Positions 2,975 through 43,263 of a stretch of DNA of 43,263 bases are shown here, piece after piece. Made by a program: the position numbers and the translations under genes. The notes under the pieces are model-generated. The model was not told the origin of the DNA and made no database searches. It saw only the letters and a program-made list of their open reading frames with translations. Position 1 is the stretch's first letter. Each line of letters opens with the position of its first letter. Where the stretch lies: the IMG/VR virus record IMGVR_UViG_3300029351_000004, positions 1-43,263 of that record. One strand, 5' to 3'. This stretch comes from a virus.

Positions 2975-3102
2975 CAGCACGGTACGCCACCCCCCACGAT
3001 CTCTTCCGCCTGATCGGCAGTGATCCACTTCGGGGCCATGGAGCGCACCTGCTCCGCCGTCAGACGGCCCAGACGATACTGGATGCGAATAAACTCATAC
3101 AT
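2974..3102 (-). CDS. XkdX-like small protein (42 aa)
   Basis: Below the ORF-track size cutoff. Translation MYEFIRIQYRLGRLTAEQVRSMAPKWITADQAEEIVGGGVPC fits the XkdX pattern (Y..G..T.EQV...WIT..Q.EEI.G). Translationally coupled on both sides. Confidence 0.65.
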   Translation of the reverse strand: MYEFIRIQYRLGRLTAEQVRSMAPKWITADQAEEIVGGGVPC

Positions 3103-3265
3103 CGCCCGTCCCTCCCATCATCAGCTCCAGTATGGCCGCCTCCAGCGCGGAGAGCCGTTCCGCCTCTGTGGGCGAGATGGGAGGCTGGGCCTGTCTCATG
3201 GCCTCCAGCTCCGCGAGCTCTTCTGCTGTTGCGTCGCGGTAGATGCCGTTATCGCAGATTCTCAT
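3095..3265 (-). CDS. Small protein (56 aa) in the XkdW position between fibre and XkdX-like gene
   Basis: Below the track cutoff. Starts 1 nt after the fibre stop (TGAAATG). Translation MRICDNGIYRDATAEELAELEAMRQAQPPISPTEAERLSALEAAILELMMGGTGDV. The call rests on position only. Confidence 0.5.
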   Translation of the reverse strand: MRICDNGIYRDATAEELAELEAMRQAQPPISPTEAERLSALEAAILELMMGGTGDV

Positions 3266-3266
3266 T

Positions 3267-5522
3267 TCACATTGCCTCCACTAAAAAGATACTTCCCGTG
3301 CCAAAATAACTTGTCCCCCAGGTATGTAGCCGCACCTCTTGACCGTTAGAGCGAACTGTCCCAAGAACCCCCGTGGACCAAGCGGCCTCGCCCTTGCTGA
3401 AAGTACCAGCAATGCGAAATGCGCCAATATCTAAAACTATCAATTCAGTCCCGTAATCCGAGTGACTAGCCGAATTGTCTTGTGTCGGTACAAAGGTGGG
3501 CCACCTCGCTATTTCTGACCCACATATAGTCGTTACCATTGGGCCAGACTCGCTTTGGTTGTTGCTGGGGGATAGCTTTACCGATATCCTGACTGTCTTT
3601 GCTGTATCCGGAACCGAAACTGATACGGCCTGAACATCCTCGGTAAGGGTAGTATTAAGCAGTGTGTTCCACTCTCCGCCCCCACCCGGCGCGCTCACCT
3701 TGCCCCACGCTCCGTCCACCACGCCCGCATACATGCCGTTGTCCTCTGCGGTCACCGTGGGGAGGCCGACGCCATCCGCACCTGCGGGACCCTGCGGGCC
3801 GGTGTCACCTTTTGGCCCCTGCGGACCCGGCGCTGTCCACAACCGCCCGTCGTCATCCACACCCACGCTCTGGGTCATGGCGTCGTCTGCCGTCTCGGGC
3901 GATACGCCGCCCAGGGTCCCGGGCCCCGCCAGCGGGAGCCGATAGCTACGTCCAGTCGAGACAAAACCGTCTGCGGTAACGTTAATGTTCATGCAGGCGC
4001 TTGCAAAGCAGAATGTCGCGTCAATCGCCGTGATATCGGAAAGCGGCGCATAACCGGTAAGGGGCCCCTCCACGACCTTCCCAATGCAGTTGTCTCCCGC
4101 GTCATGCGCGGCTTTGATTTCCGCAAAGGTTTTATCCGCGCTGCACTCGCCGTCTGCATACGTAAATGTCACCCAGAAAGGGGTTGCCCCTCCGGATGGG
4201 TCCACCCAGACCGCAGCTCCGCCACTCCTGCCCAGCACCTGCCCGTCCGTCCCCCCGGGCGGGACCAGCGATCCGGCGTCCTGTGTCACCACCCCTCCGA
4301 AGTTGGCCGTGCACGGGAGGTCCACGGTGGGCTTGTCCCCGTCGGCAATCAGGGTCACGGCCCCGTCCGTCTGACTCTGGATGGAGAGGAGGGCCGCCCG
4401 TGCCGCCGCCCGCTGTGCGTCCGTGGCCCCCTGTGTCAGCCCGATCTCCCCAAAGCTGTCCGCCAGGAGCCCCGCCACAGCCACCGTCTGGGTGTAGGAG
4501 GCGGCCTCGCCGGTCCATCCGGCGGCGGTCAGCACCACGTCCACACTGGTTCCGTAGGCGCTGATGGCCTCCGCCGCGTCCACCGCGGCGTCTGCGCTCT
4601 GCCGGGCCTCTCCCGCCTTGGCCGTGGCCGTCGCACACGCTGTCTGAGCCTGGTCCCGGGCCGTCTCCGCCCCGGTTTTGGCCGTCACTGCGGCGCTCTG
4701 GGCGGACGTGGCCGCGCTCGCAGCGGTATGCGCCGTCTGGGCCGACTGCGCCGCCGACAATCCCGATGCGGAAGCTTCCCCCGCCTTAGCTGCCGCTGTC
4801 TGGGCAGATGTGGAGGCGGAGGAGGCGGACGCTGCCGCCGCCGTCTCGCTGGCTTTGGCGTTGTTCTCCGAGGTCTTGGCCGCCGTCTCACTGTTTCCCG
4901 CCGCAGCGGCCGAGGCGGAGGCTGCCGCCGCGCTGTTTCCCGCCGCGTTCGCGCTACTCGCCGCAGCGGCCGCACTTTTCTCAGCGCCCTGTGCGCTGCT
5001 CGCCGCTGTAGCGGCGGATGCTGTAGCTTCTGCGGCCTTCTGTGTAGCCGTAGCCGCCCCCGCCTGGGCAATGCCCGCTTGTTCCGACATATCCTCTAGC
5101 AGCGTGTCGATCTGTGCCTGGAGCTGTTCGGCCTGGGTGGGAGTGGGGTCCGTGGGGTCCGACGGCACGATGGGCGCGTGCTTCACCAGCAGGCGTACCG
5201 CCACACTCCGCGCCCGCACCCCGTCCGTATAGCCATCCACCACCATCGTGCACTCCCCAGCGTAGGCAAGAGGTTCCGGCGGGATCACGGTTCGGTAGAG
5301 TCTGGTATTGTCCGCCAGGTCCACCAGCAGGTCCGCAGTCAGCGTCCGCACCACAGGGTCCTGTCCCAGCGCGTTGATCCAAGTGAGCTTTTTCGCCATG
5401 CCGTCCCAGTCCTCACCAAAGGAGATCAGCAGACTCGTTGCGTTGCCCTCTCCCTGGGTACCTGCGCAGCCGGAGGTCTTTTTCACCTCATACCCTATGA
5501 TCTGCATTTGGATTTCTCGCAT
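3267..5522 (-). CDS. Tail fibre (751 aa): BppU_N/DUF2479-like N-terminus, long Ala/Ser/Thr-rich rod, collagen-like G-X-Y run, lower-GC C-terminal domain
   Basis: Track ORF with RBS AAAGGAGGG 6 nt upstream of the ATG. GPQGPKGDTGPQGPAGADG is encoded at 3771-3827. The A/S/T-rich stretch lies at about 4560-5075. Confidence 0.8.
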   Translation of the reverse strand: MREIQMQIIGYEVKKTSGCAGTQGEGNATSLLISFGEDWDGMAKKLTWINALGQDPVVRTLTADLLVDLADNTRLYRTVIPPEPLAYAGECTMVVDGYTDGVRARSVAVRLLVKHAPIVPSDPTDPTPTQAEQLQAQIDTLLEDMSEQAGIAQAGAATATQKAAEATASAATAASSAQGAEKSAAAAASSANAAGNSAAAASASAAAAGNSETAAKTSENNAKASETAAAASASSASTSAQTAAAKAGEASASGLSAAQSAQTAHTAASAATSAQSAAVTAKTGAETARDQAQTACATATAKAGEARQSADAAVDAAEAISAYGTSVDVVLTAAGWTGEAASYTQTVAVAGLLADSFGEIGLTQGATDAQRAAARAALLSIQSQTDGAVTLIADGDKPTVDLPCTANFGGVVTQDAGSLVPPGGTDGQVLGRSGGAAVWVDPSGGATPFWVTFTYADGECSADKTFAEIKAAHDAGDNCIGKVVEGPLTGYAPLSDITAIDATFCFASACMNINVTADGFVSTGRSYRLPLAGPGTLGGVSPETADDAMTQSVGVDDDGRLWTAPGPQGPKGDTGPQGPAGADGVGLPTVTAEDNGMYAGVVDGAWGKVSAPGGGGEWNTLLNTTLTEDVQAVSVSVPDTAKTVRISVKLSPSNNQSESGPMVTTICGSEIARWPTFVPTQDNSASHSDYGTELIVLDIGAFRIAGTFSKGEAAWSTGVLGTVRSNGQEVRLHTWGTSYFGTGSIFLVEAM

Positions 5523-24110: not shown

Positions 24111-24701
24111 TTATGCCCGCTCCGTCAATTTTTCGAGCATTTCCCGCCAGTTTTTGGGCGGGGAGATGGTCTCCCAGTAGCACACCGTGGATTGGACCAC
24201 TCCCAGCAGCTCGGCAGCCTCCCTTTGCGTCAGCCCCAGAGCAATACGAGCGTCACGCAGCTTGCGCTTGCCCTCGGCGATCTCCTCCCTGTGGGCCTCG
24301 TAGTACCGGCGCTGGGCCTCAGCGAGCTCCTCCTTGTGGGTCTCGCGGTACCGGCGCTTGCCCTCGGCGATCTCCTCCTTGTGGGCCTCGCGGTACCGGC
24401 GCTGGTACTCGACGATCTCCTCCTTGTGGGCCTCGCGGTACCGGCGCTGGTACTCGACGATCTCCTCCTTGTGGGCCTCGTAGTACCGGCGCTGGGCCTC
24501 AGCGATCTCCTCCTTGTGGGCCTCGCGGTACCGGCGCTGGGCCTCAGCGATCCGCTTTTGCTTTGAGTCCATGCGGCCCAGGATGGCCTCCCGATCAATG
24601 AGCCGCCCAAGCGCAATGTCGGCATTTGTAACGCAAAATGTAGACTCGATCTCTGCGTCGGCACGGGCCATTTCTGCCAGCTCTGCGGGGGTGAATCCCA
24701 T
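24111..24701 (-). CDS. HTH (XRE-like, C-terminal) protein with six tandem 15-aa charged repeats
   Basis: Repeats of QRRYREAHKEEI(A/V)E(A/Y/G). The C-terminal HTH is LGLTQREAAELLGVVQSTVCYWE. Start trimmed to MGFTPAEL, which follows AAAGGAG. Confidence 0.7.
   Translation of the reverse strand: MGFTPAELAEMARADAEIESTFCVTNADIALGRLIDREAILGRMDSKQKRIAEAQRRYREAHKEEIAEAQRRYYEAHKEEIVEYQRRYREAHKEEIVEYQRRYREAHKEEIAEGKRRYRETHKEELAEAQRRYYEAHREEIAEGKRKLRDARIALGLTQREAAELLGVVQSTVCYWETISPPKNWREMLEKLTERA
24270..24539. repeat. Tandem 45-bp repeat x6 (in frame, inside CDS 24111..24701)
   Basis: Units start at 24270, 24315, 24360, 24405, 24450 and 24495. Only a few substitutions separate the units. Confidence 0.95.
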
Positions 24702-24733
24702 TGACAAGTCATCTCCTTTCTGCGCGGCGCTTT

Positions 24734-24883
24734 TTATGTCGGCTCCGCCTCCGCCCACTTGGCCGACTGGATCACCCGTTTGCGGGGGCCATAGTCAAAG
24801 ACCACCAACCGCATCCCATCCGGCGTCCGGGCCTCCACCTTCCACCCGCCGTCCATGGCCTCCACTTTTACGATCTTGTTCAT
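24734..24883 (-). CDS. Hypothetical small protein (49 aa)
   Basis: MNKIVKVEAMDGGWKVEARTPDGMRLVVFDYGPRKRV..., preceded by AAAGGAGG 6 nt upstream. Confidence 0.5.
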   Translation of the reverse strand: MNKIVKVEAMDGGWKVEARTPDGMRLVVFDYGPRKRVIQSAKWAEAEPT

Positions 24884-25528: not shown

Positions 25529-25804
25529 TCATGCACTACCCTGGGTTCGCTCATCTGGGCCGTCCGGCGGCTCACGCCACCGCACTTTTACGCTCGTGAG
25601 TTCCAGCCCCTCGCGCTTCATCATGATTCTTGCGGTGTGGATCAAAACTGCCGCTGCAAACTGCTTCCGAAATTCAGGGTCATCCATTTTGTGCTCGGGG
25701 TCTATGAGTACAGCTGCCACGTCTGGGGCCTCCTTTCTAACTCGCGTATTGGTCGCCGCCTCCGGTCTCACAGACCGGGGGGCGGGCTTTTTATGGCCTG
25801 CCAT
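25529..25804 (-). CDS. Hypothetical early protein (91 aa; start uncertain)
   Basis: Track ORF only. Confidence 0.4.
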   Translation of the reverse strand: MAGHKKPAPRSVRPEAATNTRVRKEAPDVAAVLIDPEHKMDDPEFRKQFAAAVLIHTARIMMKREGLELTSVKVRWREPPDGPDERTQGSA

Positions 25805-25920
25805 GCGTCCTTCTCCCCTTCCTTACGCGCTGTCCTGGGCGTCTGTCTTTGAAATAGGATTGTCCTTCTCTTCTGCGCTATGGTATGATTTGAATAATTA
25901 AGATAAAGGAGATTGGGAAA

Positions 25921-26532
25921 ATGTCTTTTGCTTTTGCCAGTTATAATGCATACGGCATCGTAGTTTCTGCCGATCGTTGCCTTACCGGCACATCCTCCAG
26001 TGGAGAAAGGTACACCCTAACCAATAACGGCAGAAAGCTATTTTTGTCAAAGCAAGGATTCGCTGTCGCATTCACCGGATGTTCATCAGTAGCCGGCTTC
26101 CTGGCGCCGGCCGCAATTCCGGACATTTTAGATTCCCTTGATGGCCCAATGCGCCTAACTGATTTTTCTTCTCAATTTGTTGCCTCGATGTCCAAACTTT
26201 GCAGAGAAAACATGATCTTTCTAATCGCTGGATATCAGGATGGGACGCCGCAGATATACACGGCGACAACTCAAAAAACTGAACTCGTGCAAATGGAGGG
26301 CCTTGCTTATTCAGGAGAGAGCGACCTTGGTAAGGCCATCTTGTGCGCCGTGCCCGTCACATATGGCACTATGACTTTGCAAGACCGTATAGACTTTCAT
26401 CGTTTTGTCACCAAGACGATTTCCAACCTGCAATCCTACAGTGACCGTATCCGAACTGTGAGCGAGGCTTGCGATGTAGTTGCCATTGAAAAACAGGGAA
26501 TTGTGCTCTCCGCTTTTAGTGAGCTACGTTAG
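25921..26532 (+). CDS. Proteasome beta/HslV-like Ntn-hydrolase-fold protein (203 aa), low-GC moron
   Basis: SFAFASYNAYGIVVSADRCLTG...GRKLFL...AFTG and IFLIAGYQDGTPQIYTATT...GLAYSGESD follow the proteasome beta-subunit block pattern. RBS AAAGGAG lies upstream. A TGgTATGAT extended -10 element is at about 25885-25893. Confidence 0.55.
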   Translation: MSFAFASYNAYGIVVSADRCLTGTSSSGERYTLTNNGRKLFLSKQGFAVAFTGCSSVAGFLAPAAIPDILDSLDGPMRLTDFSSQFVASMSKLCRENMIFLIAGYQDGTPQIYTATTQKTELVQMEGLAYSGESDLGKAILCAVPVTYGTMTLQDRIDFHRFVTKTISNLQSYSDRIRTVSEACDVVAIEKQGIVLSAFSELR

Positions 26533-26776
26533 CTGCACTACACGCGCTGTCCTGGCTGGCTGAATCGTTATCTACCAAAGTAGAATTATCGGTCAAAAAA
26601 ATATAGGCAATTGGAATGCCTGTAATTTCTGATATCTGATTCACCTGACCGACAGTTGCCCTAGAAACATCCTTTTCAATTTTTATGTAGGTAGACCTAT
26701 CAATTCCAAGCTTTTCAGCGAGTTCCGCTTGTGTCATGCCAGCGTGTGTCCGGGCCTGTTTTATCGTAAATTGCAA
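26516..26776 (-). CDS. XRE-family HTH regulator (86 aa, TTG start), cro-like by position
   Basis: KQARTHAGMTQAELAEKLGIDRSTYIKIEKD. AAAGGAGG lies 9 nt upstream of the TTG. It is transcribed toward the early genes. Confidence 0.75.
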   Translation of the reverse strand: MQFTIKQARTHAGMTQAELAEKLGIDRSTYIKIEKDVSRATVGQVNQISEITGIPIAYIFLTDNSTLVDNDSASQDSACSAANVAH

Positions 26777-26801
26777 GGTGCTCAGCCTCCTTTCTGTGGT
26801 A

Positions 26802-26830
26802 AGTATATATCTACCTAAGTAGAATGTCAA
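26802..26830 (-). promoter_or_regulatory. Sigma-70-type promoter (TTGACA-17-TATACT) with a palindromic operator in the spacer
   Basis: On the minus strand, -35 is at 26830-26825 and -10 at 26807-26802. TCTACCTAAGTAGA (26810-26823) lies in the spacer. Confidence 0.7.
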
Positions 26831-26861
26831 GTACAAAATGGAGAATTAGTAGAAAAAAATA

Positions 26862-26890
26862 TTGAAATAACTCTACTTTTGCTGTATAGT
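26862..26890 (+). promoter_or_regulatory. Sigma-70-type promoter (TTGAAA-17-TATAGT) for the rightward regulator and moron operon
   Basis: -35 at 26862-26867 and -10 at 26885-26890. Half-sites GTAGA (26849-26853) and TCTAC (26872-26876) are nearby. Confidence 0.7.
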
Positions 26891-26913
26891 CAGTTTCAGA
26901 GAGGTGTCGCACT

Positions 26914-27255
26914 ATGGAAATATCAGAAAAGATATACAGATTACGGACAGATAACGATTTGACACAAGCACAATTTGGGAAAATAGCTGGTGTATCCGAT
27001 AAGGCTGTTTCTACTTGGGAGCTCGGGATAAAAGAGCCCAGAATGAAACCATTGCAAAAAATATGCTCTTATTTTGATCTCGATATAAACTCATTTGTGG
27101 ACCCAAACGCTCATGTATACGAAAAAGGGCCCACCCCCGTCCCCGAGAGTGGACCCTTGTACCCGCCTGGGTATGATTTGCTTACGCCTGAGCAAAAGGA
27201 GATTGTTGACCGTCTGATCGCCGACCTTGCACGAAATCATCAATCAGGCGGATAA
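26914..27255 (+). CDS. XRE-family HTH regulator (113 aa), cI-like by position
   Basis: LRTDNDLTQAQFGKIAGVSDKAVSTWELG. It is divergent from the cro-like gene and heads the operon that runs toward the integrase. Confidence 0.75.
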   Translation: MEISEKIYRLRTDNDLTQAQFGKIAGVSDKAVSTWELGIKEPRMKPLQKICSYFDLDINSFVDPNAHVYEKGPTPVPESGPLYPPGYDLLTPEQKEIVDRLIADLARNHQSGG

Positions 27256-27442
27256 CCTGTTCGCGTTCACAATTGTCTAGCGATAAGTACATCGCAAGAG
27301 TGTCCGAATCCACCGCATCCCCCTTTCTCCGCAAGCCCGAACGAAATTCCTTGACTCCATAATAGTACGTTTGTTCTATTTGGTCAACCCGGAAAAGTTG
27401 CCAAATTTCAACGCAAATTTTCTGCCTTTTGACAAATTTCAC
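27182..27442 (-). CDS. Possible small protein (86 aa, GTG start, no clear RBS)
   Basis: Only the track ORF fills an otherwise empty 190-nt gap. Composition is protein-like. Its 3' end overlaps the cI-like gene by 74 nt. Confidence 0.3.
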   Translation of the reverse strand: MKFVKRQKICVEIWQLFRVDQIEQTYYYGVKEFRSGLRRKGDAVDSDTLAMYLSLDNCEREQVIRLIDDFVQGRRSDGQQSPFAQA

Positions 27443-27530
27443 ACACTTGCGGAATAGTCCGGATTATGGGACACGTGGAATGATATCGTTACCCAGCCGT
27501 CCGATGGTGGAGAAAGGAGAGAAAGACTGT

Positions 27531-27842
27531 ATGAGTTTGAAAAATCAGCGCAATATCGCCTTCGTCCTCTGTGCGGTGTTCTTTGCCTTGACCTTAATCT
27601 TTGCCTTCCGGTCCACACCTGTGGCATCCAAGCAGGCAGCCTCCCCCACAAGCACGGCCCGTGCGCAGGCGCAGCGTACAGACTAGGCGAAAAACTATGT
27701 CGCTAGCGTGAACAGCGGTAAATACCACCGTTTGACCTGCGACTATGCGGACAACATTCTGGAAGAAAACCGAGTTTACTATGCCACGGTGCAGGAGGCG
27801 GAAGCTGCCGGAAAACAGTCGTGCTCCGTATGTAGACCATGA
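27531..27842 (+). pseudogene. Membrane-anchored small protein with a C-terminal KYH...C...CxxC ('sunset'-like) module, interrupted by one in-frame TAG (27684-27686). Either a pseudogene or a readthrough/recoding candidate.
   Basis: ATG at 27531 follows AAAGGAGAG. Translation MSLKNQRNIAFVLCAVFFALTLIFAF...AQAQRTD-TAG-AKNYVASVNSGKYHRLTCDYADNILEENRVYYATVQEAEAAGKQSCSVCRP-TGA, all in one frame. Confidence 0.6.
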
Positions 27843-27878
27843 GGAGTGAGCATTAAGATGAAACCAAGGAGGTTGATG

Positions 27879-28184
27879 ATGAAAAAGGGGCTACTCTCTT
27901 TACGGATGTGGGTCGACACCCTAATCCTTGTTCTTCCCGTTGGATGGGTCTTAACCTGCTACGATGGCGGCTGGGCAGACTTCTGCTCCGGGGCATATCT
28001 GGCATTTATCTGGCACCTGTTATGCGCCTGTATCATTTCGACACTTTTGATTGGGTTTGGTATGCGTCTATCGGGTCAGACAATGACTGAAGACTCTGAG
28101 TTTCCTCGCCCCTGCTCACAGTGGGCAGCGATCGGGATAGAGATGTTGGTTTTATTGATTGCAACCTATAAACTACTCGGGTAG
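27879..28184 (+). CDS. Multi-pass membrane protein (about 101 aa), candidate superinfection-exclusion or moron protein
   Basis: Track ORF 27846..28184 trimmed to the ATG after AAGGAGG. It has three to four hydrophobic segments. Confidence 0.6.
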   Translation: MKKGLLSLRMWVDTLILVLPVGWVLTCYDGGWADFCSGAYLAFIWHLLCACIISTLLIGFGMRLSGQTMTEDSEFPRPCSQWAAIGIEMLVLLIATYKLLG

Positions 28185-28242
28185 AAAAAGCCACCCCTGC
28201 TGGTATACATACGGGAATCTGGCTACAGAGTTATACTTTTAA

Positions 28243-28274
28243 GATCGCCTCCCTACAGGGGCGTGGGTTGAAAT
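28243..28274 (+). CRISPR. Solitary type I-C-like CRISPR repeat unit (no array, no cas genes)
   Basis: GATCGCCTCCCTACAGGGGCGTGGGTTGAAAT has a 5' (A/G)TCGC, a GC stem with a TACA loop, and the 3' handle GCGTGGnTTGAAAT as in remembered I-C repeats (for example GTCGCACTCTACATGAGTGCGTGGATTGAAAT). I found only one copy on either strand. Confidence 0.6.
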
Positions 28275-28386
28275 AAATACCCCGCCGCTGGAGGGCGGTA
28301 ATATAAAAATCCCCGGCACGAGGCCTACATGACCCCGGAGACCCTGATCAAGCTGTGTACCACGCGGAAAGTGGTAAAAAATTACA

Positions 28387-28415
28387 TTGACAAAATTTTT
28401 CCCGGCGCATATAAT
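28387..28415 (+). promoter_or_regulatory. Consensus sigma-70 promoter (TTGACA-17-TATAAT)
   Basis: TTGACA at 28387-28392, a 17-nt spacer, and TATAAT at 28410-28415. It lies about 110 nt upstream of the NYN gene. Confidence 0.8.
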
Positions 28416-28532
28416 AGGGGCGTAGCAAGGCTACACTATATTTGCTGAACAGGCCCTTGGTAGTAAGCCCCCCACATATACGGGGTAGGCAGAATCCTTG
28501 GGCCTTATTATTTTGTTAGGACGTGAGAATAT

Positions 28533-29201
28533 ATGTCAAAGACAGCTATTCTGATTGATGGTGGGTTTTATAGAAAGCGCGCAAAACATTTATGGGGTGA
28601 AAAAACTGCCGAAGAACGCGCAAAAGAATTGGAAGCGTACTGCAAAGCTCATTTACATCGCAAGGACAGCGGTACGGAACGCCAGTTGTATAGAATATTT
28701 TATTACGACTGTTCACCTGTTGGGCGCCGAAGCGTGTACCACCCACTCACCAAGAAGAATGTTGATTTAGATAAATCGGATACATACACTTGGACTACAA
28801 TTTTCCTTGAAGAGTTGAAGCGCCGGCGGAAATTTGCACTTAGGCTTGGAGAATTATCAGAACAAATGCACTACAATCTGCGACCGGATGTCACAAGAAA
28901 ACTTTTGGCTGGGAAGATTAGCTTGGAAGACTTAACCGAAAACGACTTTGTATTTGTCGCCCAGCAAAAGGGTGTAGATATGCGAATCGGGATTGATATC
29001 GCTTCCATGACTTACAAGCAGCAGGTGAACCAAATTATTCTGGTCGCCGGGGACAGTGATTTTGTTCCCGCTGCTAAAATGGCCCGTCGCGAAGGAATCG
29101 ACTTTATTCTTGATCCGATGTGGGCCGACATACGGCCAAATCTGTTTGAACATATTGACGGACTTTACTCGATGTGGAAAAAGAAACCCGACGATAAATA
29201 A
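28533..29201 (+). CDS. NYN/LabA-like (PIN-like) domain protein, predicted ribonuclease (222 aa)
   Basis: KTAILIDGGFY...QKGVDMRIGIDI...IILVAGDSDFVPAAKMARREG follows the NYN/DUF88 acidic-residue pattern. Confidence 0.7.
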   Translation: MSKTAILIDGGFYRKRAKHLWGEKTAEERAKELEAYCKAHLHRKDSGTERQLYRIFYYDCSPVGRRSVYHPLTKKNVDLDKSDTYTWTTIFLEELKRRRKFALRLGELSEQMHYNLRPDVTRKLLAGKISLEDLTENDFVFVAQQKGVDMRIGIDIASMTYKQQVNQIILVAGDSDFVPAAKMARREGIDFILDPMWADIRPNLFEHIDGLYSMWKKKPDDK

Positions 29202-29300
29202 AATAACCGCTCCCGGTGCTGGCACACCAGGAGCGACGGGAAGGCGTAGACCACAGAGCGGCGGCTACCCTTCTATTATCGGAATAGGAGGATTTTGTCA

Positions 29301-30710: not shown

Positions 30711-30772
30711 TCGATGTAATCCGGACGGATCACATTATTTACTTAACAAAGCCGCCTGATTTATTCCATGAG

Positions 30773-30806: not shown

Positions 30807-31259
30807 TTAGGGGAGTCTATCGACAATAGCATCCAAGAGATGTGCTGGGGAAAGTTGATACGAATTAAAGTCCCGAACCATATTCAGTACGAAGTCGGCA
30901 TCCACCGAGATATCATGCACGATACTCACCAGTGAATATCCAGACTTTGTATTTCTGCATACCATCATTCCATAGGTATACGGGTACTGCGCATCAGTTC
31001 CCTGTTCTAAAACAGCAAAATAGCTTACTTTTCCAATCAGCCCACTTGTTTCGGATGGCTCTGCTATCAAATCAGCCAAACTGAGAGACATCCCTTCTTC
31101 AATTCTTCCTAGCGTCTCCAATGTAATATTCGCTTGTGCCCGCTCTATTTTCCCCATGGTCTTCTCGCTGATTCCACAGAGTTCGGCGGCCTGCTCTTGC
31201 GAATAACCTCTTTTTATTCTGGCGAGCCTGAGATTATTTCCAAGAAGTGAAATATCCAT
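30807..31259 (-). CDS. XRE-family HTH regulator with a C-terminal extra domain (150 aa)
   Basis: Trimmed to MDISLLGNNLRLARIKRGYSQEQAAELCGISEKTMGKIE, which follows GGGAGG. TTGAAA-17-TATTAT lies upstream on the minus strand. The C-terminus (...YGMMV...LSPAHLLDAIVDRL) resembles a Clostridial DUF I recall only loosely. Confidence 0.7.
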   Translation of the reverse strand: MDISLLGNNLRLARIKRGYSQEQAAELCGISEKTMGKIERAQANITLETLGRIEEGMSLSLADLIAEPSETSGLIGKVSYFAVLEQGTDAQYPYTYGMMVCRNTKSGYSLVSIVHDISVDADFVLNMVRDFNSYQLSPAHLLDAIVDRLP

Positions 31260-31354
31260 TTTATCATTCCTCCCTGAAAATATAATAATTGGTAAAATTA
31301 TCAATTTCAAGGGAATATAGTTCTTTTTTGTAATACTGGCCCGATAAGATGTCA

Positions 31355-31391
31355 AAATAAAACCCGCCACCATGACCGGCAGCGGGTTTTT
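31355..31391 (-). terminator. Rho-independent terminator ending the late operon
   Basis: Minus strand reads AAAACCCGC-TGCCGGTCATGGTG-GCGGGTTTTATTTT, beginning 8 nt after the stop of the 2245-aa gene. Confidence 0.8.
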
Positions 31392-31399
31392 GGGTATAT

Positions 31400-34300
31400 T
31401 CAGCTCTTCCTCAGCTTTCGTAGTTTCTCTTCTACCAGTGCTTTATTGTACTGGATGATCGTTTTTCCTACCTCAAAATCAGTAAACATGGCCTGTCTCT
31501 GTTTATCCGTCAGTCCCTGGATGGAATATACGGCCTCCATAACGAGCAGTCCTCTGCTGTTCGTAATGGTCTCCCCGTTCTGATCTTTCAGCGATTGGAT
31601 GTCTCGCTGCACCTCATAAGCGTAGAGGTAAGTTTCAATCGGGACTCCGGTTCGTTTGGTGGTGCTGATTGCCCTTTTGATCCATCCATCGGGCTGATAT
31701 TCGGACACATTTGTTTTTCCTATGGCATTAGCATAGTCGTATGCATCCTGTATCAGTCTTACCTTGTCCCCATCGCTCAGGCCTGTATACCATCTTGCGT
31801 TTGTAATCTTACACAGTATCTGATAGGATGTCTGCCCCTTTGCCGTGGCGTATGTCACATATTCCTCCGCCGTCAGCTCCCTGCGCTTACCGTTTACTGT
31901 GAAATATTTGTCGGCACGGGCGGGGAATACGCCACTATCTCCTGTGGCCTCGTAGAGTCTCAGCAGTTCCTCCTCCATTTGGCTCGTCTCAATCTGAGCG
32001 GTATAGGCCGGATTTAAAAAGTTGTCCACCGCCCGTTTGCCCGCACTGCCTGTATCCTCGGTACGCCCCCATGCGTCAATGTAGGGGATCTGCTGATAAT
32101 CCCAGCCGGGCAGCCTCCCGCTGATCCGCCCCAAGGTATACTGGGCGTCCCGGGTCAAAAACGCATTCTTTTCCGTGTAGGTAGTCATCCGCTCCTCCTG
32201 TCCGGTCCGCTCGAATTGACCGAGGAGCGTGGGGACTCCCTGTGTCAGATAGCTTGTGGCAGCGCTGGCCAAGGCGGAAAAGAGGCCGTCCATTCCCTCG
32301 GAGGTGGCGTACCCCACCGCGTCAAACACGTCGTTCAGGCTCTGGAGACAGGACATCTCCAGCAATGGCTCCGTTACATTACCGGTTGCTTTCAAAATGG
32401 CGGACAGGGTAATGGGTTCCCTCTCCCCCTGTGTCTGTTCCCAAAGGTTTACGCCCACGAAGAAGGGCAGCGCTTCCGGTGCCAGCCAGTCCAGCGTCAC
32501 GCTGGTGCCGTCCGGAAGCTCCAGCGCATAGGTCTGATGCCCCTGTAATTCCTCAAACTTTTTCTTCTCTTCGTCTTCACCGCCGGCCCCCCGCACAAGT
32601 GCCTGAGCCGCGCAGTACATCCCAAAAGCGAGCAGCCCCGTACCGGTCATTCCAGCAGAGATGCGGTCGATGGCCTCGGCGCCGCTCAGCTCGCCCTGCT
32701 TCACCTGGTGCAGGTCATAGGTCAGGCCCTTCAAAAGTCCGGCGGGACTGTACTCCAGTCCCCGGGCCAATATGTTGGCCGGCGTCTTGCGGAAGGGCAG
32801 TATTCCTTCCATGGCAGTGCTCACGCCTTTTCCCACCGCGTTTTTCCCACTATAGCGCCCCAGATCGCTGATGGTCTGCGACAGGGCATTGGTGTCCCGG
32901 TAGGTGGCCTTTTGGGCCTCTTTGATCGCATAGGCCCTGGCCTTGTCCATCCCCTTCCCTGTGGCGATCTGCTCCGCCGTGATGTGGTTGGCCTTGCAGT
33001 ACTGGGCCAGCGCATAGGCGTAGTGGGGGTGTGAGAACCAGGCATCCTCCGCATCCAGAGCCCTGCTGTTGGCTCTCCTGACCGCCTCCAGGGACTTGCT
33101 CTTAAAGATGCGCCGCCCCTCCTCGATGTACTGGTTGGCGTTGGCAAAGTCGCTGTATTTGCCTGCCCCCAGGGCGGCCTCCTTCACGTTGGCGTAGTCG
33201 CCCCATGCGGCCGCAAGCAGGTCCCGGTCCGCCCTGCCCAATCCCACCGCCCCTTTTGTCCGGTTCAGTCTCCCGCCGGATACCCGTTCTACCGCAACCT
33301 CAATGGCTGTTGCAGTCATATCCTTGGCTGCGACCACCGGAGCAAAGAAGGCGTTGCCTACAATATTTCTTACGTGTGTCCTGGGGTTTGCCAGCATGGC
33401 CAGATACCGCCAGGCGTTCCACTTGTCCACAAATCGGGAGGGCATCTGTCTGCCGATATCCCGGAACAGCTCCCGGGCAGCCTCGTCCCGCGCTTTCTGG
33501 TCCTCCGCCAGGAGCATCGCCTGTGCAAGATCCGGGTCGATCTTCAGGTCCGGGGCGTCCTTACCATACTCTTTCTTCAGCTCCTCCTGGAGGTTTTGCA
33601 CGCTCCGCTGGACGCCGTAAAGCTGGCCCTCCGGGGACATCTTTTTGAGAATGCGGGTGGCCTGCACCGCCTGGGCGGCGTTTCGTTGATGTCCCACCAT
33701 TTTTGTGAGCACCGTCATAGCTGACTGAATGTCTCCGGCATTGGCCGCCGCGTTGTACAGAGCCCAGCCCATGGCCGTGTTCGCCTTGGACACCTCGCCT
33801 TTCCCCACTGCATCCGACCAGTCCGCCAAGGCGGTGGCGTATCCCTTGTCCTGGATTGCGCTCTCCGCCTCCGCGATGGCCCTTTTATCTGAGTGGACCT
33901 CATAGGAAAATTCTCCTCGAGCGACCAATTCCTTGATGCTGGGAACCGTTTCCTCTGGAGTGGCTTTTGCCTCCAGTACAGTCCGTGCAGTCAGGGAGAC
34001 CTTTTGGTCCTTTTCTGTCATTTGTGGCACCTGAATGTGGCGTGCCGGCCGCTCTCCCTGTTTTATCTCACCGTATTCTCCAATCATCCCCCGGTATGTC
34101 TCATCCACGATCTGTGCAATTTCCTCTTTGACCTGTGCATCGCTCATTCCCTCACGTTCTGCACGGTCGGAGAGTGCCTGCACCGCCGCGTACATCTCTC
34201 GTGAGCCCATCAGGGAGTGACGGATATCCGGGTCTGTGGTATCAAAGGTCCCGGCGTTATCCTCCGCAGCTTTAATCTGCTCCGGCTCAAACACGACAAA

Positions 34301-37300
34301 TACATCGGACATTTCCCGGAACTTTTTGCTTCCAAAGGTGTCATACACATTTTTGAACACCACGCCGTCCTTTCCGGTTTGGGCCGCTTCCTGAATGATT
34401 CTCGTATATCTTTCCGAATTGCCCTGATAGGCATCCCCCTTAAAGTCCACAACAACAGGATTTTTCATGGATAAGAATACCTTCATCAAAACACCGGAAA
34501 TTCCGCTGGCCCGGTAGTTCTTTACTGCTTTTTCATATTTCTCCCTCACCTTCTTAAACAGATCGTCAGCCTCCGGAACCACTCCCAGTAGTTCTTCCAT
34601 GCGGTCAAACTCATCTCTCAGTTTCAATATTTCATAGGGAAAGGTATTCTCGGCATATCCACTCGCTACCTTTGCGCTGCTGGAGAAAAAGAATCCCATC
34701 CGCGCATCTTCTGTCTTTGTAAAGGCTCCTCGTTTTTTCTTGTCAAAGATATGTATCTCTTCCGCCGTCCCGTGGTATACAGCTCTGGGGCTTCCATCTT
34801 CCTGGTAGAGCTCGGGGGTGTTGCCATCATAAAATCGCTTGAAGTAAGGGCTCTGTGTCCCCATCTCTCTCCACAGTTGTGCCGCCTCGGCCCGCTCCTC
34901 AGCTGTGAATGCTCCTGCATGTTCCGCCCCTTCTACGGAGTACTCCTCCCCGTCCAAGGCCATCAGAGAATATTTGGTGTTGCTATTTTGGCCGCTGGAG
35001 GGTGTACTGGAAGTAGGACCGTAGGTGGTTGGAGAGAACGGCAATCGGAGCGTATTATCGCGCAGCCACTGATCGGTTCTTTTTTTAACATCCTGACCGG
35101 TCCGGACCAGTGCCGCCTCCAGTGCCTGGGCCATACTGTCCAGGTTTTTCTCCAGATCACGAAGGCCCGCTCTTTCCTCTTGCGTCAGGGGAGGCTGTTC
35201 TCTGCCCCTCTGATGATCCAGTGCGGCGCGCACCTTCTCCAGCAGCTCATGCACCGCGTCCATCAGCCTCTCTGCCGCCGTACGGTGCTCCATGACGAAC
35301 TGCTCCAGCATGGCGCTGTCACCCAGAACTTGCCCAAAGGCATCCGCAACCAGTTCTTCGGTCAGATAGTCTATGTTTTGCGTATCATGTAGCTTGCCCA
35401 ATGCCCCCAGAGCGATGTCTGCAGTTTGCGCGTTCAAGTTTTTCTGCACAAACTGCGCCAGTTCCGAATAGCTCTCCGGTGATACCTCTCGCATCCGATG
35501 GATAATTTCGTGGGTAAATGCTGTGCGCACCGGGTCCTGGGCATCCAGGGCAATGGTGATCCGCCCTCCATTTGGACCGGATTCGTATTTAGCGTTGGCA
35601 CGCGCGCCGGTTTGGGTGTCCACAATCTCCTCTGCAAACCGCACCTCTACCCCCGCAGTCTTTCCCATTGTATCCAGCACCCGAGCGGTTTTTGCGCTCA
35701 TATTTGCTTGGCGGTATCTTTGATCTCTCACCAATCCTGCCTTTCTCCCAAAGTATTTCGCCTGCTGGGCCCGGAGCGCATCGTTTTTCCCCGCAGCTTC
35801 AGCCGCCAGAGTCAGATGTGCTGGGAGCGTTTCCTCCCGTGTGGACTTCTTCCCGTCCAGCGCTCTGTTATAGATCCTGGCGAAGCCCGCAAACGCATCC
35901 TGCAGGCTTATTCTTTCCGCAGTCTCTGCGTCGTAGGCCGCCAAAAAAGCCCGGGAACCGCTTTCTCCCAGAGTAGCGGCGGCCCGCTGCACCAGCCTGT
36001 CGGGATAGATTTGCTGTTTTTCCCCGAATACCGCCGGTCCCGCCTGGACAGACTGGGTATTGCCACCAGCGGAGGAATCTGCTATAATGGGGGTAGAAGA
36101 TGGTGCAGTATCCGTGCTATGTACGCTGGTCGCGTGACGGCCAGCCGTGGATGCTGCGCCATCGTTCTTTTTTATGACCTCTATCGCCTCTGGGGTGAAA
36201 TGGTACAGGCGGTTCCCGCCTCCTGCCTTTTGGTCCTCCACGCGGACACGCATATCAACCAGATACGGGCTTCCGTCAATATATACCGTAGTCATAAGGT
36301 GGTCGTATCCCGCGATTTGCGCCCGCCCGCGCCGGTCGCCTTCGCTGCTGAAATACACGCCATTTTGAGCAATACGCTCCAGTTGTCCCAAAACCGCAAT
36401 GCTCTCCAGTGGGACCACCCGGTCAGAATAGCTGCCGGCAGACAGCATCTTTTTCAACGAGGGTTTTGTGATTTTAATCACATAAGCATCCCCGTTTCTG
36501 GTTACGTTGCTGGCTTCGATGTATGCCGCCGGATTCTTGTCAAGTCCGAGGCGCGCTTCCGTTTGTTCCAGCGCAGTCTTTCGGATATAGTTTCCGGCCT
36601 TGGGCATGGTTCCGCCGTTCATATCCGCCACTGTCTGCATAGACAGATTAATGATGGGCACGGTGGGCAGCTCTACATTTTCGGGTCTCGCCGCCCGATA
36701 CGTTCCCGTCTCCCCCGTGGAGGCGGTTTTTTGCGTCTGTTGAGCCGCAGGGGCATACAAAGCCGTGGTCTGCGAGTTTGCCGCCTCTGGGGCCTCCTGC
36801 GCGGGCCGGGCCGGATTCGCGGCGAGGTCCCTTCCGGCGGTCACGTTGTACACCCCGCCGGGTACATTCAGCATACCGAATGTCAGCAGTGAGGCGAGTC
36901 CTGTATCCTTCAGCCGGTCAGCCACCTCTCCCGCGCCATATTGCCACTCCCCCGTTTCCATCCTGCTGGCGGCTTGGGCTCCGGCGATGGTCACGCCCTC
37001 CTGCGCCATTTCCTGAAGCGTCTCGTTTCCTACGTCCGTGCCGCGCTCTATCAGCTCCCGTGCAATCCTGCGCGCCAGCCCCTGCGTGGCAGTGTTCCCT
37101 TTGAGGACTTGGAAGGATTTTACCAGCTCGTCCGCCTGCACATATTCCAACATGGCGTTGCCCACACCCACCGCCGTGGCGACCTTGGATGCGGTGTCCG
37201 GAGATATCCCGTTCTCGATCATCTCATTGTAGGCAAATCCCGCCTCGATTTCATAGTTTGAAACGGCGCTGCCCGCTTGCAGCCCCATCATTGCCGCCCC

Positions 37301-38137
37301 CGGGACCGTGACAAGCTCCTCCGGGGCCAATGCCTGCGGCCCTGCCTGGCCCGCTGCCGCAGCCATGCCCGCATACCCCGTCGCCAGCGCGACAGAGCGT
37401 GGATCCGTCCACTGGCGGAGCTGCTGTCCGAGTTGTCCTGCCGCCCCGGACACGGCCTCCTCCAGCCAGCCGTCCGGCAAGAAACGATACTCCTCGCCCG
37501 CCAGCTTCTCCGCGTATTTCCGGGCCTCATTCTCTTTGCCCGTCATCGCTTTATAGCTCTCCTGGCCATATACAGAGTTATAGTATCCCTGAGAAAAGCT
37601 GCCCAACGTCAGGTCCTTCAGGGACGCATCCCGATATCCGGCGTTCAGCAGAGCCTGCCGTTCGGATTCCTCCGCCGCCTTTTGCTCCTCCCTGAGCGGA
37701 TCCATCTGCTGATAAAGCGCGACAAGCTCCGTATTGAGCCTGCCCAGCTCTTCCCGGCTCCGCCCGGCTTTCCCCTTCTGTGTGAGCTCGCCGATCCTGC
37801 GGTTGAGATCATCCGCACGGCCCTGTAGAGTCCCCATATCATACTGGATATCTGCCGCGCTTCTGGCTGTAGCGGTGCTTTCCCTCTCATCTCCCTGCAC
37901 CGCACGCACCGGGCGCTCCTCCTGCGTGAGCCCCAGCCTCCTGGTCGCCGCAGTGCTGCGCCTTCTCGCAAAATAGGAATCGGTAAAGGCGTCCGTACCC
38001 GCTCCGACTGCCGCCATTTTGGCCGGCGCGGCGCTTTGTGTCTGGCTCAATTTCGCCTTAGGCGCACTTTTGTTCTGGGCGTCGTTCTCCTTTTTTCTGC
38101 GTGAGAGATAGGCCGCGGTAAAGTTGTCAGAAGCCAA
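31400..38137 (-). CDS. Giant multi-domain ('polyvalent'-type) virion/ejection protein (2245 aa) with an HExxH metallopeptidase-like motif and an ADP-ribosyltransferase-like module
   Basis: Uninterrupted 6.7-kb ORF. HEIIH is encoded at 35498-35512. VYHGT...GFFFSSS...VVFEPEQ lies at about 34253-34855. A possible nuclease/toxin-like module covers residues ~488-655. The C-terminal ~850 aa are helical. Confidence 0.8.
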   Translation of the reverse strand: MASDNFTAAYLSRRKKENDAQNKSAPKAKLSQTQSAAPAKMAAVGAGTDAFTDSYFARRRSTAATRRLGLTQEERPVRAVQGDERESTATARSAADIQYDMGTLQGRADDLNRRIGELTQKGKAGRSREELGRLNTELVALYQQMDPLREEQKAAEESERQALLNAGYRDASLKDLTLGSFSQGYYNSVYGQESYKAMTGKENEARKYAEKLAGEEYRFLPDGWLEEAVSGAAGQLGQQLRQWTDPRSVALATGYAGMAAAAGQAGPQALAPEELVTVPGAAMMGLQAGSAVSNYEIEAGFAYNEMIENGISPDTASKVATAVGVGNAMLEYVQADELVKSFQVLKGNTATQGLARRIARELIERGTDVGNETLQEMAQEGVTIAGAQAASRMETGEWQYGAGEVADRLKDTGLASLLTFGMLNVPGGVYNVTAGRDLAANPARPAQEAPEAANSQTTALYAPAAQQTQKTASTGETGTYRAARPENVELPTVPIINLSMQTVADMNGGTMPKAGNYIRKTALEQTEARLGLDKNPAAYIEASNVTRNGDAYVIKITKPSLKKMLSAGSYSDRVVPLESIAVLGQLERIAQNGVYFSSEGDRRGRAQIAGYDHLMTTVYIDGSPYLVDMRVRVEDQKAGGGNRLYHFTPEAIEVIKKNDGAASTAGRHATSVHSTDTAPSSTPIIADSSAGGNTQSVQAGPAVFGEKQQIYPDRLVQRAAATLGESGSRAFLAAYDAETAERISLQDAFAGFARIYNRALDGKKSTREETLPAHLTLAAEAAGKNDALRAQQAKYFGRKAGLVRDQRYRQANMSAKTARVLDTMGKTAGVEVRFAEEIVDTQTGARANAKYESGPNGGRITIALDAQDPVRTAFTHEIIHRMREVSPESYSELAQFVQKNLNAQTADIALGALGKLHDTQNIDYLTEELVADAFGQVLGDSAMLEQFVMEHRTAAERLMDAVHELLEKVRAALDHQRGREQPPLTQEERAGLRDLEKNLDSMAQALEAALVRTGQDVKKRTDQWLRDNTLRLPFSPTTYGPTSSTPSSGQNSNTKYSLMALDGEEYSVEGAEHAGAFTAEERAEAAQLWREMGTQSPYFKRFYDGNTPELYQEDGSPRAVYHGTAEEIHIFDKKKRGAFTKTEDARMGFFFSSSAKVASGYAENTFPYEILKLRDEFDRMEELLGVVPEADDLFKKVREKYEKAVKNYRASGISGVLMKVFLSMKNPVVVDFKGDAYQGNSERYTRIIQEAAQTGKDGVVFKNVYDTFGSKKFREMSDVFVVFEPEQIKAAEDNAGTFDTTDPDIRHSLMGSREMYAAVQALSDRAEREGMSDAQVKEEIAQIVDETYRGMIGEYGEIKQGERPARHIQVPQMTEKDQKVSLTARTVLEAKATPEETVPSIKELVARGEFSYEVHSDKRAIAEAESAIQDKGYATALADWSDAVGKGEVSKANTAMGWALYNAAANAGDIQSAMTVLTKMVGHQRNAAQAVQATRILKKMSPEGQLYGVQRSVQNLQEELKKEYGKDAPDLKIDPDLAQAMLLAEDQKARDEAARELFRDIGRQMPSRFVDKWNAWRYLAMLANPRTHVRNIVGNAFFAPVVAAKDMTATAIEVAVERVSGGRLNRTKGAVGLGRADRDLLAAAWGDYANVKEAALGAGKYSDFANANQYIEEGRRIFKSKSLEAVRRANSRALDAEDAWFSHPHYAYALAQYCKANHITAEQIATGKGMDKARAYAIKEAQKATYRDTNALSQTISDLGRYSGKNAVGKGVSTAMEGILPFRKTPANILARGLEYSPAGLLKGLTYDLHQVKQGELSGAEAIDRISAGMTGTGLLAFGMYCAAQALVRGAGGEDEEKKKFEELQGHQTYALELPDGTSVTLDWLAPEALPFFVGVNLWEQTQGEREPITLSAILKATGNVTEPLLEMSCLQSLNDVFDAVGYATSEGMDGLFSALASAATSYLTQGVPTLLGQFERTGQEERMTTYTEKNAFLTRDAQYTLGRISGRLPGWDYQQIPYIDAWGRTEDTGSAGKRAVDNFLNPAYTAQIETSQMEEELLRLYEATGDSGVFPARADKYFTVNGKRRELTAEEYVTYATAKGQTSYQILCKITNARWYTGLSDGDKVRLIQDAYDYANAIGKTNVSEYQPDGWIKRAISTTKRTGVPIETYLYAYEVQRDIQSLKDQNGETITNSRGLLVMEAVYSIQGLTDKQRQAMFTDFEVGKTIIQYNKALVEEKLRKLRKS

Positions 38138-43164: not shown

Positions 43165-43263
43165 TAGTTTGCCGCGGCCAGCTTTTGCAGCAGGTCCGCG
43201 CCGTATCGGTACGCCTCCAGGTAGTCCATGGTCTCCTCGGCCAGCCCGAAGCGCGCCTGTACC
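43165..43263. repeat. Exact 99-nt duplicate of positions 1-99 (circular-closure overlap)
   Basis: Base-by-base identity read directly (tagtttgccgcggccagc...gcgcgcctgtacc). It carries the 3' end of the endolysin CDS. Confidence 0.97.

Follow-up and report, generated by a model that had tools for sequence, protein, structure and literature searches.

Many new proteasome-like families have been catalogued in bacteria and phages by Fuchs, Alva, and Lupas (Bioinformatics 2021, PMC8665760), among them the phage and prophage families PPH, AAH, CPH, PMI-4, and DAH and the Firmicute-specific clusters FC1–FC5. Thr1 or Ser1, Asp17, Lys33, and Gly47 are common to all of these families, a propeptide and an AAA+ partner are absent, and no genomic context pointing to function was seen. 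A later paper assigning a function to these orphan homologs was not found in the literature. A gene of this kind is described here in a temperate phage. The window, the whole 43,263-nucleotide stretch of IMG/VR record IMGVR_UViG_3300029351_000004, contains at positions 25,921–26,532 a gene predicted to encode a 203-aa N-terminal nucleophile (Ntn) hydrolase of the proteasome type, located beside a cro-like gene. Like the catalogued orphans, the product would stand alone, without a propeptide or AAA+ partner and with the Thr1/Ser1–Asp17–Lys33–Gly47 set conserved, in a family of Firmicutes and their phages. It differs from PPH, which has ~140 aa and lacks helix H2, in having all four helices, and from the orphans as a group in that its close subfamily occurs in lysogeny-module or defense-island contexts and offers a precise empty site. 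These two features and a rewritten Cro C terminus are new here; the existence of phage and Firmicute proteasome homologs with no assigned function was already known (PMC8665760), and the novelty implied in the original prediction, which was made from the letters alone and knew of no stand-alone homolog carried as a prophage moron, is not supported. The locus provides a concrete handle on the orphan proteasome-like families, which number in the dozens among bacteria and phages and for which the cataloguing study saw no informative context.

Prophages also carry morons and immunity-region cargo, examples being rexAB and sieB of lambda and the lysogeny-module exclusion genes of Gram-positive siphophages. 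Like them, the gene described here is a discrete accessory gene with a promoter-like site of its own and a composition atypical of the phage backbone; it is situated beside the genes for the repressor and Cro, and near-identical phages differ in whether they carry it. It differs from rexAB/sieB-type cargo in its product, a predicted proteasome-fold hydrolase instead of an exclusion protein of the membrane or nuclease type, in its antisense position within the early lytic transcript, and in its effect on the C terminus of Cro.

Relationship to Known Families

Searched by itself with hmmscan, the window protein gave no useful match in Pfam, PHROGs, PADLOC, or NCBIfam, and sequence searches of the Protein Data Bank (PDB) with the single sequence or an 11-sequence profile returned chance matches only (a seed protein and SufE). 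Its close homologs (n = 11, 48–62% identity; hereafter the close subfamily) are invariant at Met1, Ser2, Asp18, Lys39, and Gly53. An exhaustive profile search gave 271 clusters at E ≤ 1e-3, and a family profile was built from 146 full-length representatives with mutual identity below 50%. The link to the proteasome in the PDB sequence search surfaced only with this profile, which matched 20S proteasome β-subunits at E 2e-8. Individually, 37 of the 146 members matched PF00227 (Pfam Proteasome; best E 3.7e-9). The Ntn hydrolase identity given in the original prediction thus stands at the level of the family, and the window protein alone remains without a Pfam match.

An hhalign comparison with the β-subunit of the archaeon Thermoplasma, which serves as a cross-check only, gave a probability of 94.8% (E 5e-8). 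The same comparison with Escherichia coli HslV was insignificant (probability 1.2%), and HslV was absent from the best 60 sequence matches and the best 50 structural matches. The protein is therefore β-subunit/Anbu-like and not HslV-like, and the HslV likeness originally proposed was rejected. HslV and CodW (ClpQ) belong to the same superfamily, and the nucleophile of E. coli HslV is exposed by Met removal alone, as is predicted here; in contrast to these proteins, the window family shows no significant profile similarity to HslV and the phage has no HslU-like ATPase gene. For Bacillus subtilis CodW, PMC7468587 cites Kang et al. (2001) as having reported an N-terminal serine protease.

A tblastn search of 50,697 GenBank phage records with three family members found no match, the window phage itself is absent from those deposited genomes, and a search of IMG/VR for related loci with the close-homolog alignment found none. 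One relative, from Oceanobacillus, carries the NCBI name "Ntn hydrolase family protein." No accession of a PMC8665760 cluster representative occurs among the cluster members listed for the window family, which is a new member of the catalogued kind of proteasome homolog and has no hidden Markov model in current libraries.

Predicted Fold and Active Site

An AlphaFold (AF2) model built with a deep alignment had a mean predicted local distance difference test score (pLDDT) of 95.6 and a predicted template modeling (pTM) score of 0.91; an earlier model from 11 sequences reached a pLDDT of 76.6. With both models, Foldseek retrieved 20S β-subunits and Anbu (probability 1.00, E ~1e-8, TM 0.69–0.72, root-mean-square deviation 3.3–3.9 Å). 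There were 328 matches in the PDB at E ≤ 1e-3, and the best 50 of the 328 were all 20S subunits or Anbu. The best viral structural match was a metagenomic Siphoviridae protein labeled proteasome beta subunit (TM 0.84, 23% identity). The model shows the four-layer αββα fold with the canonical order of S1–S10 and H1–H4, so that an Ntn-hydrolase fold, at a TM of ~0.70 to β-subunits and Anbu, is predicted as first supposed. Together with the profile matches, the model supports assignment of the product as a proteasome-type Ntn hydrolase.

The active-site residues are conserved in register. Ser2 corresponds to Thr1 of the proteasome, Asp18 to Glu/Asp17, Lys39 to Lys33, Gly53 to Gly47, and Gly132 to Gly130. 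The same register was obtained from a HMMER alignment to β5 and from hhalign with the Thermoplasma subunit (E17, K33, G47); a HMMER alignment to yeast β1 set Lys39 on the neighboring Lys, which is regarded as a local misalignment. The spacing from Lys to Gly is 14 residues, equal to that of the proteasome, and in the model the catalytic residues occupy the same strand ends as in the proteasome, namely the beginnings of S1 and S3 and the ends of S2 and S4. Across the 146 representatives, position 2 is Ser in 121 and Thr in 21 (142/146 in all), Asp or Glu occupies position 18 in 144, Lys39 is kept in 145, Gly53 in 138, and Gly132 and Asp185 in 141 each. The nucleophile directly follows Met1 (Met-Ser in the window protein), leaving no room for a propeptide, and the ORF starts at its earliest possible start codon, which makes the N terminus, Met-Ser-Phe, unambiguous. 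Both the Ser2/Asp18/Lys39 triad and the motif blocks named in the original prediction were recovered by these profile alignments, the triad as a predicted one.

Comparison with 20S β-subunits (archaeal PsmB; eukaryotic β1, β2, and β5) shows the same element order in the αββα sandwich, conservation of the equivalents of the nucleophile, Asp17, Lys33, Gly47, and Gly130, and a family consensus that includes both the AADSR motif around Asp17 and the C-terminal GGxIDxxVI. The window family differs in lacking a propeptide, so that Met removal would suffice, in its usual Ser nucleophile, in an extra β-hairpin between S2 and S3 of the window protein, and in the absence of an α-subunit, an AAA+ partner, and helix H5. 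Identity is 10–17%, and the single window sequence is invisible to PF00227. Anbu matches the model as well as β-subunits do (5nyg and 5nyj, TM 0.69–0.72) and is likewise bacterial, stand-alone, and free of a propeptide. Its long C-terminal H5 coiled-coil helix is missing from the model, which ends after the S9–S10 hairpin at residue 198. The Anbu operon includes transglutaminase-like and ATP-grasp genes; no such neighbors occur here, where the adjoining genes are those of the phage switch.

The conservation pattern also bears on whether the fold has kept protease function. Gly132 is conserved and Ser131 is variable; in place of the second-shell residues, Thr179 and Asp185 are conserved. Fuchs et al. 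(PMC8665760) did not include the second-shell residues Ser129, Asp166, and Ser169 in their definition. Lack of conserved Asp166 and Ser169 equivalents would suit a protein that uses the fold otherwise, as a connectase-like ligase or transpeptidase, a small-molecule amidase, or an inactive scaffold. Weak matches to the connectase N-terminal domain were found for 21 of the 146 members, and the family profile matches connectase 6zvz along its first 31 residues. Anbu, too, has shown little peptidase activity in vitro. The connectase likeness is confined to N-terminal strands common to the whole family, and the model lacks the helical insertion that sets connectases apart between S3 and S4; an inactive scaffold is also difficult to square with the strict conservation of Ser/Thr2, Asp18, Lys39, and Gly53. 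On balance, a nonproteolytic role is unlikely.

An Optional Cassette in the 3′ End of cro

The gene is bracketed, together with its promoter-like site, by two copies of a 14-nt direct repeat, ACGCGCTGTCCTGG (Table 1). The repeat occurs only at these two places in the window (expected number 0.01), and none of 100 shuffled sequences contained two copies. A metagenome scan that used the right-hand repeat and its flanking sequence identified two contigs, L159 and L160, in which window position 25838 runs straight to 26542 through a single copy of the repeat. In L159, positions 2759–2840 correspond to window 25756–25838 and positions 2827–3788 to window 26542–27504 (98.9%), the two alignments overlapping by the 14-nt repeat. 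The cro/cI switch of the two contigs is 98.9–100% identical to that of the window. Empty-site variants thus lack exactly window 25839–26555, 717 bp, and retain one repeat. Either an insertion or a deletion between the repeats may have produced the polymorphism; in both cases, the gene is required neither by the switch nor by the phage. Since a 98.9–100% identical switch exists lacking exactly these 717 bp, the cassette is shown to be dispensable cargo, a moron as originally suggested, and not part of the backbone or of the genetic switch. The junction pattern was not found in genome and viral collections. Fixed element ends were considered and rejected because no flanking repeats are present in other phages.

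Comparison of the two alleles revealed how the cassette affects its neighbor. At the empty site, Cro ends in ...SQDSA, and its TAA stop is made of the two bases left of the repeat and the first base of the repeat. At the occupied site this stop is displaced, Cro gains eight residues (CSAANVAH) supplied by the cassette, and translation stops at an antisense TAA within the codons for Phe199 and Ser200 of the Ntn gene. The 17-nt overlap of the two 3′ ends (26516–26532), correctly noted in the original prediction, exists because the cro stop was displaced and the new one lies inside the Ntn gene. L024, a contig with a close homolog, shows the same overlap from the same conserved codons, and in L105, a more distant relative of the phage, cro directly abuts the next early gene. 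The phage is viable with the cassette, as circular and integrated forms exist; a moron in the 3′ end of cro can therefore rewrite the C terminus of Cro and leave the phage viable.

Other features of the gene agreed with the initial description. The ORF is real and antisense beside the cro-like gene; it has its own ribosome-binding site (RBS), AAAGGAG, and a consensus scan placed the extended −10 element in a TTGTCC-18-TATGAT promoter-like site with the TG in position. RBSs are kept among relatives of the gene, which have extended −10-like elements comparable to that of the window. Independent gene calls on identical contigs confirmed it as the sole plus-strand gene from the SNF2 helicase gene to cro. 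It is oriented with the lysogeny genes and opposed to the early lytic operon. Low GC relative to the backbone was borne out by the numbers, with 0.479 (third codon positions, GC3, 0.48) against 0.62–0.67 (GC3 0.74–0.87) for the replication genes, but it does not single out this gene: cro (0.43), the cI-like gene (0.44), and the NYN nuclease gene (0.44) are equally low, and so low GC is a property of the entire immunity region. A first reading of the region as an exchangeable low-GC immunity module, based on L105, was revised because the same module exists without the gene in the empty-site variants.

The position next to cro and the cI-like gene had led to the suggestion that the gene belongs to the lysis–lysogeny circuit, with its product acting as an ImmA-like protease on the cI-like protein or Cro, or its convergent transcript regulating cro. 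The repressor candidate, at 113 aa, lacks an S24 autoprotease domain, which leaves induction dependent on another factor, and the gene is convergent with cro, with the 17-nt overlap and an operator-like palindrome just past its 3′ end. Against these points stands the empty site, where a 98.9–100% identical cro/cI/promoter region functions entirely without the cassette; moreover, the regulators beside close homologs are unrelated between phages, and many relatives have no regulator nearby. A direct analog of ImmA/IrrE was also rejected, as there is no metalloprotease domain and an identical repressor/cro pair occurs in phages that lack the gene, at 98.9–100% identity of the switch. The empty-site variants largely exclude a role inside the circuit, which is very improbable.

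Genomic Settings of the Homologs

Close-subfamily members were found in prophage lysogeny modules or beside defense genes. In L024, the relative lies antisense within a leftward operon and adjoins a divergent helix-turn-helix (HTH) gene; in L019, it is a single plus-strand gene amid minus-strand genes; in L002, it separates a cro-like HTH gene from a 3D/YqaJ/RecT operon; and in L022, it immediately follows a serine recombinase gene. Two others have neighbors matched by PADLOC. L017 carries the gene immediately after a fused PARIS AriAB gene (712–2625, E 1e-129). In L001, a metagenome-assembled genome of Acutalibacteraceae, it lies between a DzbB-like (Dazbog-like) gene (2–1297) and a nucleotidyltransferase (NTase)/HEPN pair, PDC-S09 and PDC-M05B (2306–3035). 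These matches to AriAB, DzbB, PDC-S09, and PDC-M05B are to neighbors of two relatives only. Flanking genes are unrelated among the close-subfamily loci, and similarity spans only the stretch from the RBS to ~15 nt past the stop. A conserved gene pair with cro was therefore rejected, and no partner gene is conserved across the loci.

These settings make anti-phage defense the leading specific form of a lysogen-benefiting role, since the gene occupies a cargo slot and two relatives have defense-island neighbors. As a single-gene defense or superinfection-exclusion system, the protease would be expressed in the lysogen and degrade a protein of the incoming phage or, in abortive infection, a host protein. 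Such a role is consistent with the presence/absence polymorphism of a gene carried as optional cargo among lysogeny genes, with the NYN nuclease gene in a second variable cargo slot of that module, with the PARIS, DzbB-like, and NTase/HEPN neighbors, and with gene GC below that of the surroundings in all nine viral lineages examined. It is put forward tentatively, the odds being against it: PADLOC does not match the window protein, defense islands account for just 2 of ~7 close contexts, no sensor or partner gene is evident, experimental precedent was not found in the literature, and wider-family members also lie in housekeeping contexts and, in large phages, close to tail or terminase genes.

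The wider family was seen in 53 IMG/VR contigs in about eight lineages, always with GC below that of the surroundings. The gene is often near tape-measure or terminase genes; other sites are a prophage end after the lysis genes, the interval between tail and lysis genes, and plain chromosomal settings. In large phages, members surrounded by structural or late genes and without lysogeny genes in the vicinity would fit a protein acting for the phage during infection, as a counter-defense or host-takeover protease, and accessory genes that phages carry at module junctions often have anti-defense functions. In the window phage, leftward early transcription passes through the gene in antisense and should hinder lytic expression, the gene is oriented with the lysogeny genes, and close relatives adjoin integrases and repressors, all of which make an infection role quite unlikely here.

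Proposed Role in the Lysogen

The observations are best explained by a propeptide-less, stand-alone Ntn hydrolase of the β-subunit/Anbu branch, carried on a cargo cassette that would be expressed in the lysogen and benefit it. This proposal, which draws on sequence comparison and a predicted structure, is given a probability of about 0.6. Methionine aminopeptidase would remove Met1, as Ser is permissive as second residue, and free Ser2. Its exposed amino group and hydroxyl would then form the catalytic center, with Lys39 and Asp18 completing the triad and Gly53 serving as the oxyanion hole. Cleavage of peptide bonds is the most likely activity of the enzyme, which is probably a homo-oligomer and would act without a dedicated AAA+ partner; no AAA+ unfoldase gene was found in the phage in the gene annotation of the window and identical contigs. 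The cassette promoter probably drives expression in the lysogen, and convergent transcription from the leftward early promoter probably silences the cassette during lytic growth. A benefit to the lysogen is most likely, by exclusion or defense or by remodeling of host proteins.

Several observations weigh against this proposal. The window protein alone has no Pfam match and no family in PADLOC-DB v2 at E ≤ 1. The cassette promoter-like site agrees with the consensus at 9 of 12 positions. Asp166 of the proteasome aligns with Ile177 and Ser169 with Val180, and neither position is conserved. Finally, wider-family members also adjoin tail or terminase genes in large phages that appear to be lytic, or lie in ordinary chromosomal neighborhoods, and a lysogen-specific role is therefore not general to the family.

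A narrower version, in which a proteasome-fold Ser1 protease made only in the lysogen, owing to shutoff by convergent early transcription, confers prophage immunity as a single gene by degrading a protein of the superinfecting phage or a host factor that it needs, is doubtful; if true, it would give orphan proteasome homologs their first physiological function. With a compact cassette, a defined promoter-like site, exact boundaries, and natural near-isogenic partners that lack it, function is experimentally approachable at this locus.

The Phage and Its Neighboring Features

The window is a circularly closed assembly, in which nucleotides 1–99 equal 43165–43263 (a 99-nt terminal overlap). The phage is temperate. 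Its leftward replication operon encodes a 3D-domain protein, an exonuclease, a Gp2.5-like single-stranded DNA-binding protein, PolA, a VapE-like primase, and a helicase, and its rightward lysogeny operon encodes a cI-like HTH protein, small ORFs, a NYN nuclease, and a serine integrase. Coordinates around the cassette are collected in Table 1.

Table 1. Features of the Ntn cassette and the adjoining genetic switch (window coordinates)
Feature	Position	Strand	Remarks
Left 14-nt direct repeat, ACGCGCTGTCCTGG	25825..25838	.	Extends imperfectly to 25845
Cargo cassette, 717 bp	25839..26555	+	Promoter, RBS, Ntn ORF, and 23 nt of 3′ flank; missing in L159 and L160
Cassette promoter-like site	25860..25889	+	Consensus scan; −35 TTGTCC 25860–25865, 18-nt spacer, TG of extended −10 25881–25882, −10 TATGAT 25884–25889
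RBS, AAAGGAG	25905..25911	+	9 nt upstream of Ntn ATG
Proteasome-like Ntn hydrolase gene (predicted)	25921..26532	+	ORF, family profile, alignment, predicted structure
Ser2 codon	25924..25926	+	
Asp18 codon	25972..25974	+	
Lys39 codon	26035..26037	+	
Gly53 codon	26077..26079	+	
Gly132 codon	26314..26316	+	
Asp185 codon	26473..26475	+	
cro-like HTH gene	26516..26776	-	86 aa, TTG start, AGGAGG RBS
Right 14-nt direct repeat, ACGCGCTGTCCTGG	26542..26555	.	10 nt past Ntn stop, inside cro 3′ end
Distal operator-like palindrome, TCTACCAAAGTAGA	26571..26584	.	16 nt right of cassette, in 3′ part of cro
Leftward early promoter-like site, TTGACA-17-TATACT	26802..26830	-	11/12 consensus, operator-like palindrome in spacer
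Operator-like palindrome, TCTACCTAAGTAGA	26810..26823	.	Leftward promoter spacer; twin of 26571–26584
Rightward promoter-like site for cI-like gene, TTGAAA-17-TATAGT	26862..26890	+	Consensus scan
cI-like HTH_3 repressor candidate	26914..27255	+	113 aa, without S24 peptidase domain

The mechanical cro ORF runs from 26516 to 26836 (minus strand, 106 aa). The leftward promoter-like site (26830–26802) falls within it, and the real start is therefore probably the TTG at 26776, which gene callers also picked. The two promoter-like sites are back-to-back between the cro-like and cI-like genes. The operator-like palindromes TCTACCnAAGTAGA, TCTACC(A/T)AAGTAGA, at 26571–26584 and 26810–26823 are ~240 bp apart, and a related inverted copy lies at 26867–26879 within the rightward promoter. 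This arrangement could point to repressor looping or to a roadblock where the Ntn transcript ends. A GC-rich hairpin followed by a U-run lies on the plus strand immediately before the cassette (25759–25795; folding free energy −28.6 kcal/mol, z −2.8). It overlaps the first codons of a leftward 91-aa ORF (25529–25804) and is kept in L159, where the frame of that ORF breaks after 11 codons. No Rfam RNA was found in the region.

The second variable cargo slot (27505–29204) is situated between the cI-like gene and the integrase gene. In the window it contains small membrane-like ORFs and the NYN-domain nuclease gene (28533–29201); L159 instead encodes at this place (3789–4862) a protein of 340 aa that bears a Cu_amine_oxidN1 domain. 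In L105, a 292-aa LexA-like (S24) repressor (3760–4638, minus strand) replaces the short HTH repressor of the window, and the same attachment neighborhood is used. Immunity modules are mosaic across this group of phages.

Identical phages are integrated next to an acyltransferase/MBOAT/ALGX operon (Acyl_transf_3/MBOAT/ALGX/MFS) of an Intestinimonas-like bacterium; the closest relatives of the operon are in Intestinimonas (~70% identity). The host is an Intestinimonas-like member of the Oscillospiraceae, and the phage is from the gut. The integrated copies L005 and L006 lose homology at 30728, 18 nt (30711–30728) past the stop of the serine integrase gene, which places the attP crossover at 30728.

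The early operon includes a gene (24111–24758, minus strand) for a protein in which a C-terminal HTH comes after ~7 tandem repeats of 15 residues (RRYREAHKEEIxExQ), and the number of repeats varies between otherwise identical contigs. Farther to the right, an HTH/DUF6514 gene (30807–31373) precedes a gene (31400–38137, minus strand) for a 2245-aa polyvalent protein, in which LPD3 and ART-PolyVal domains were identified on an identical contig.

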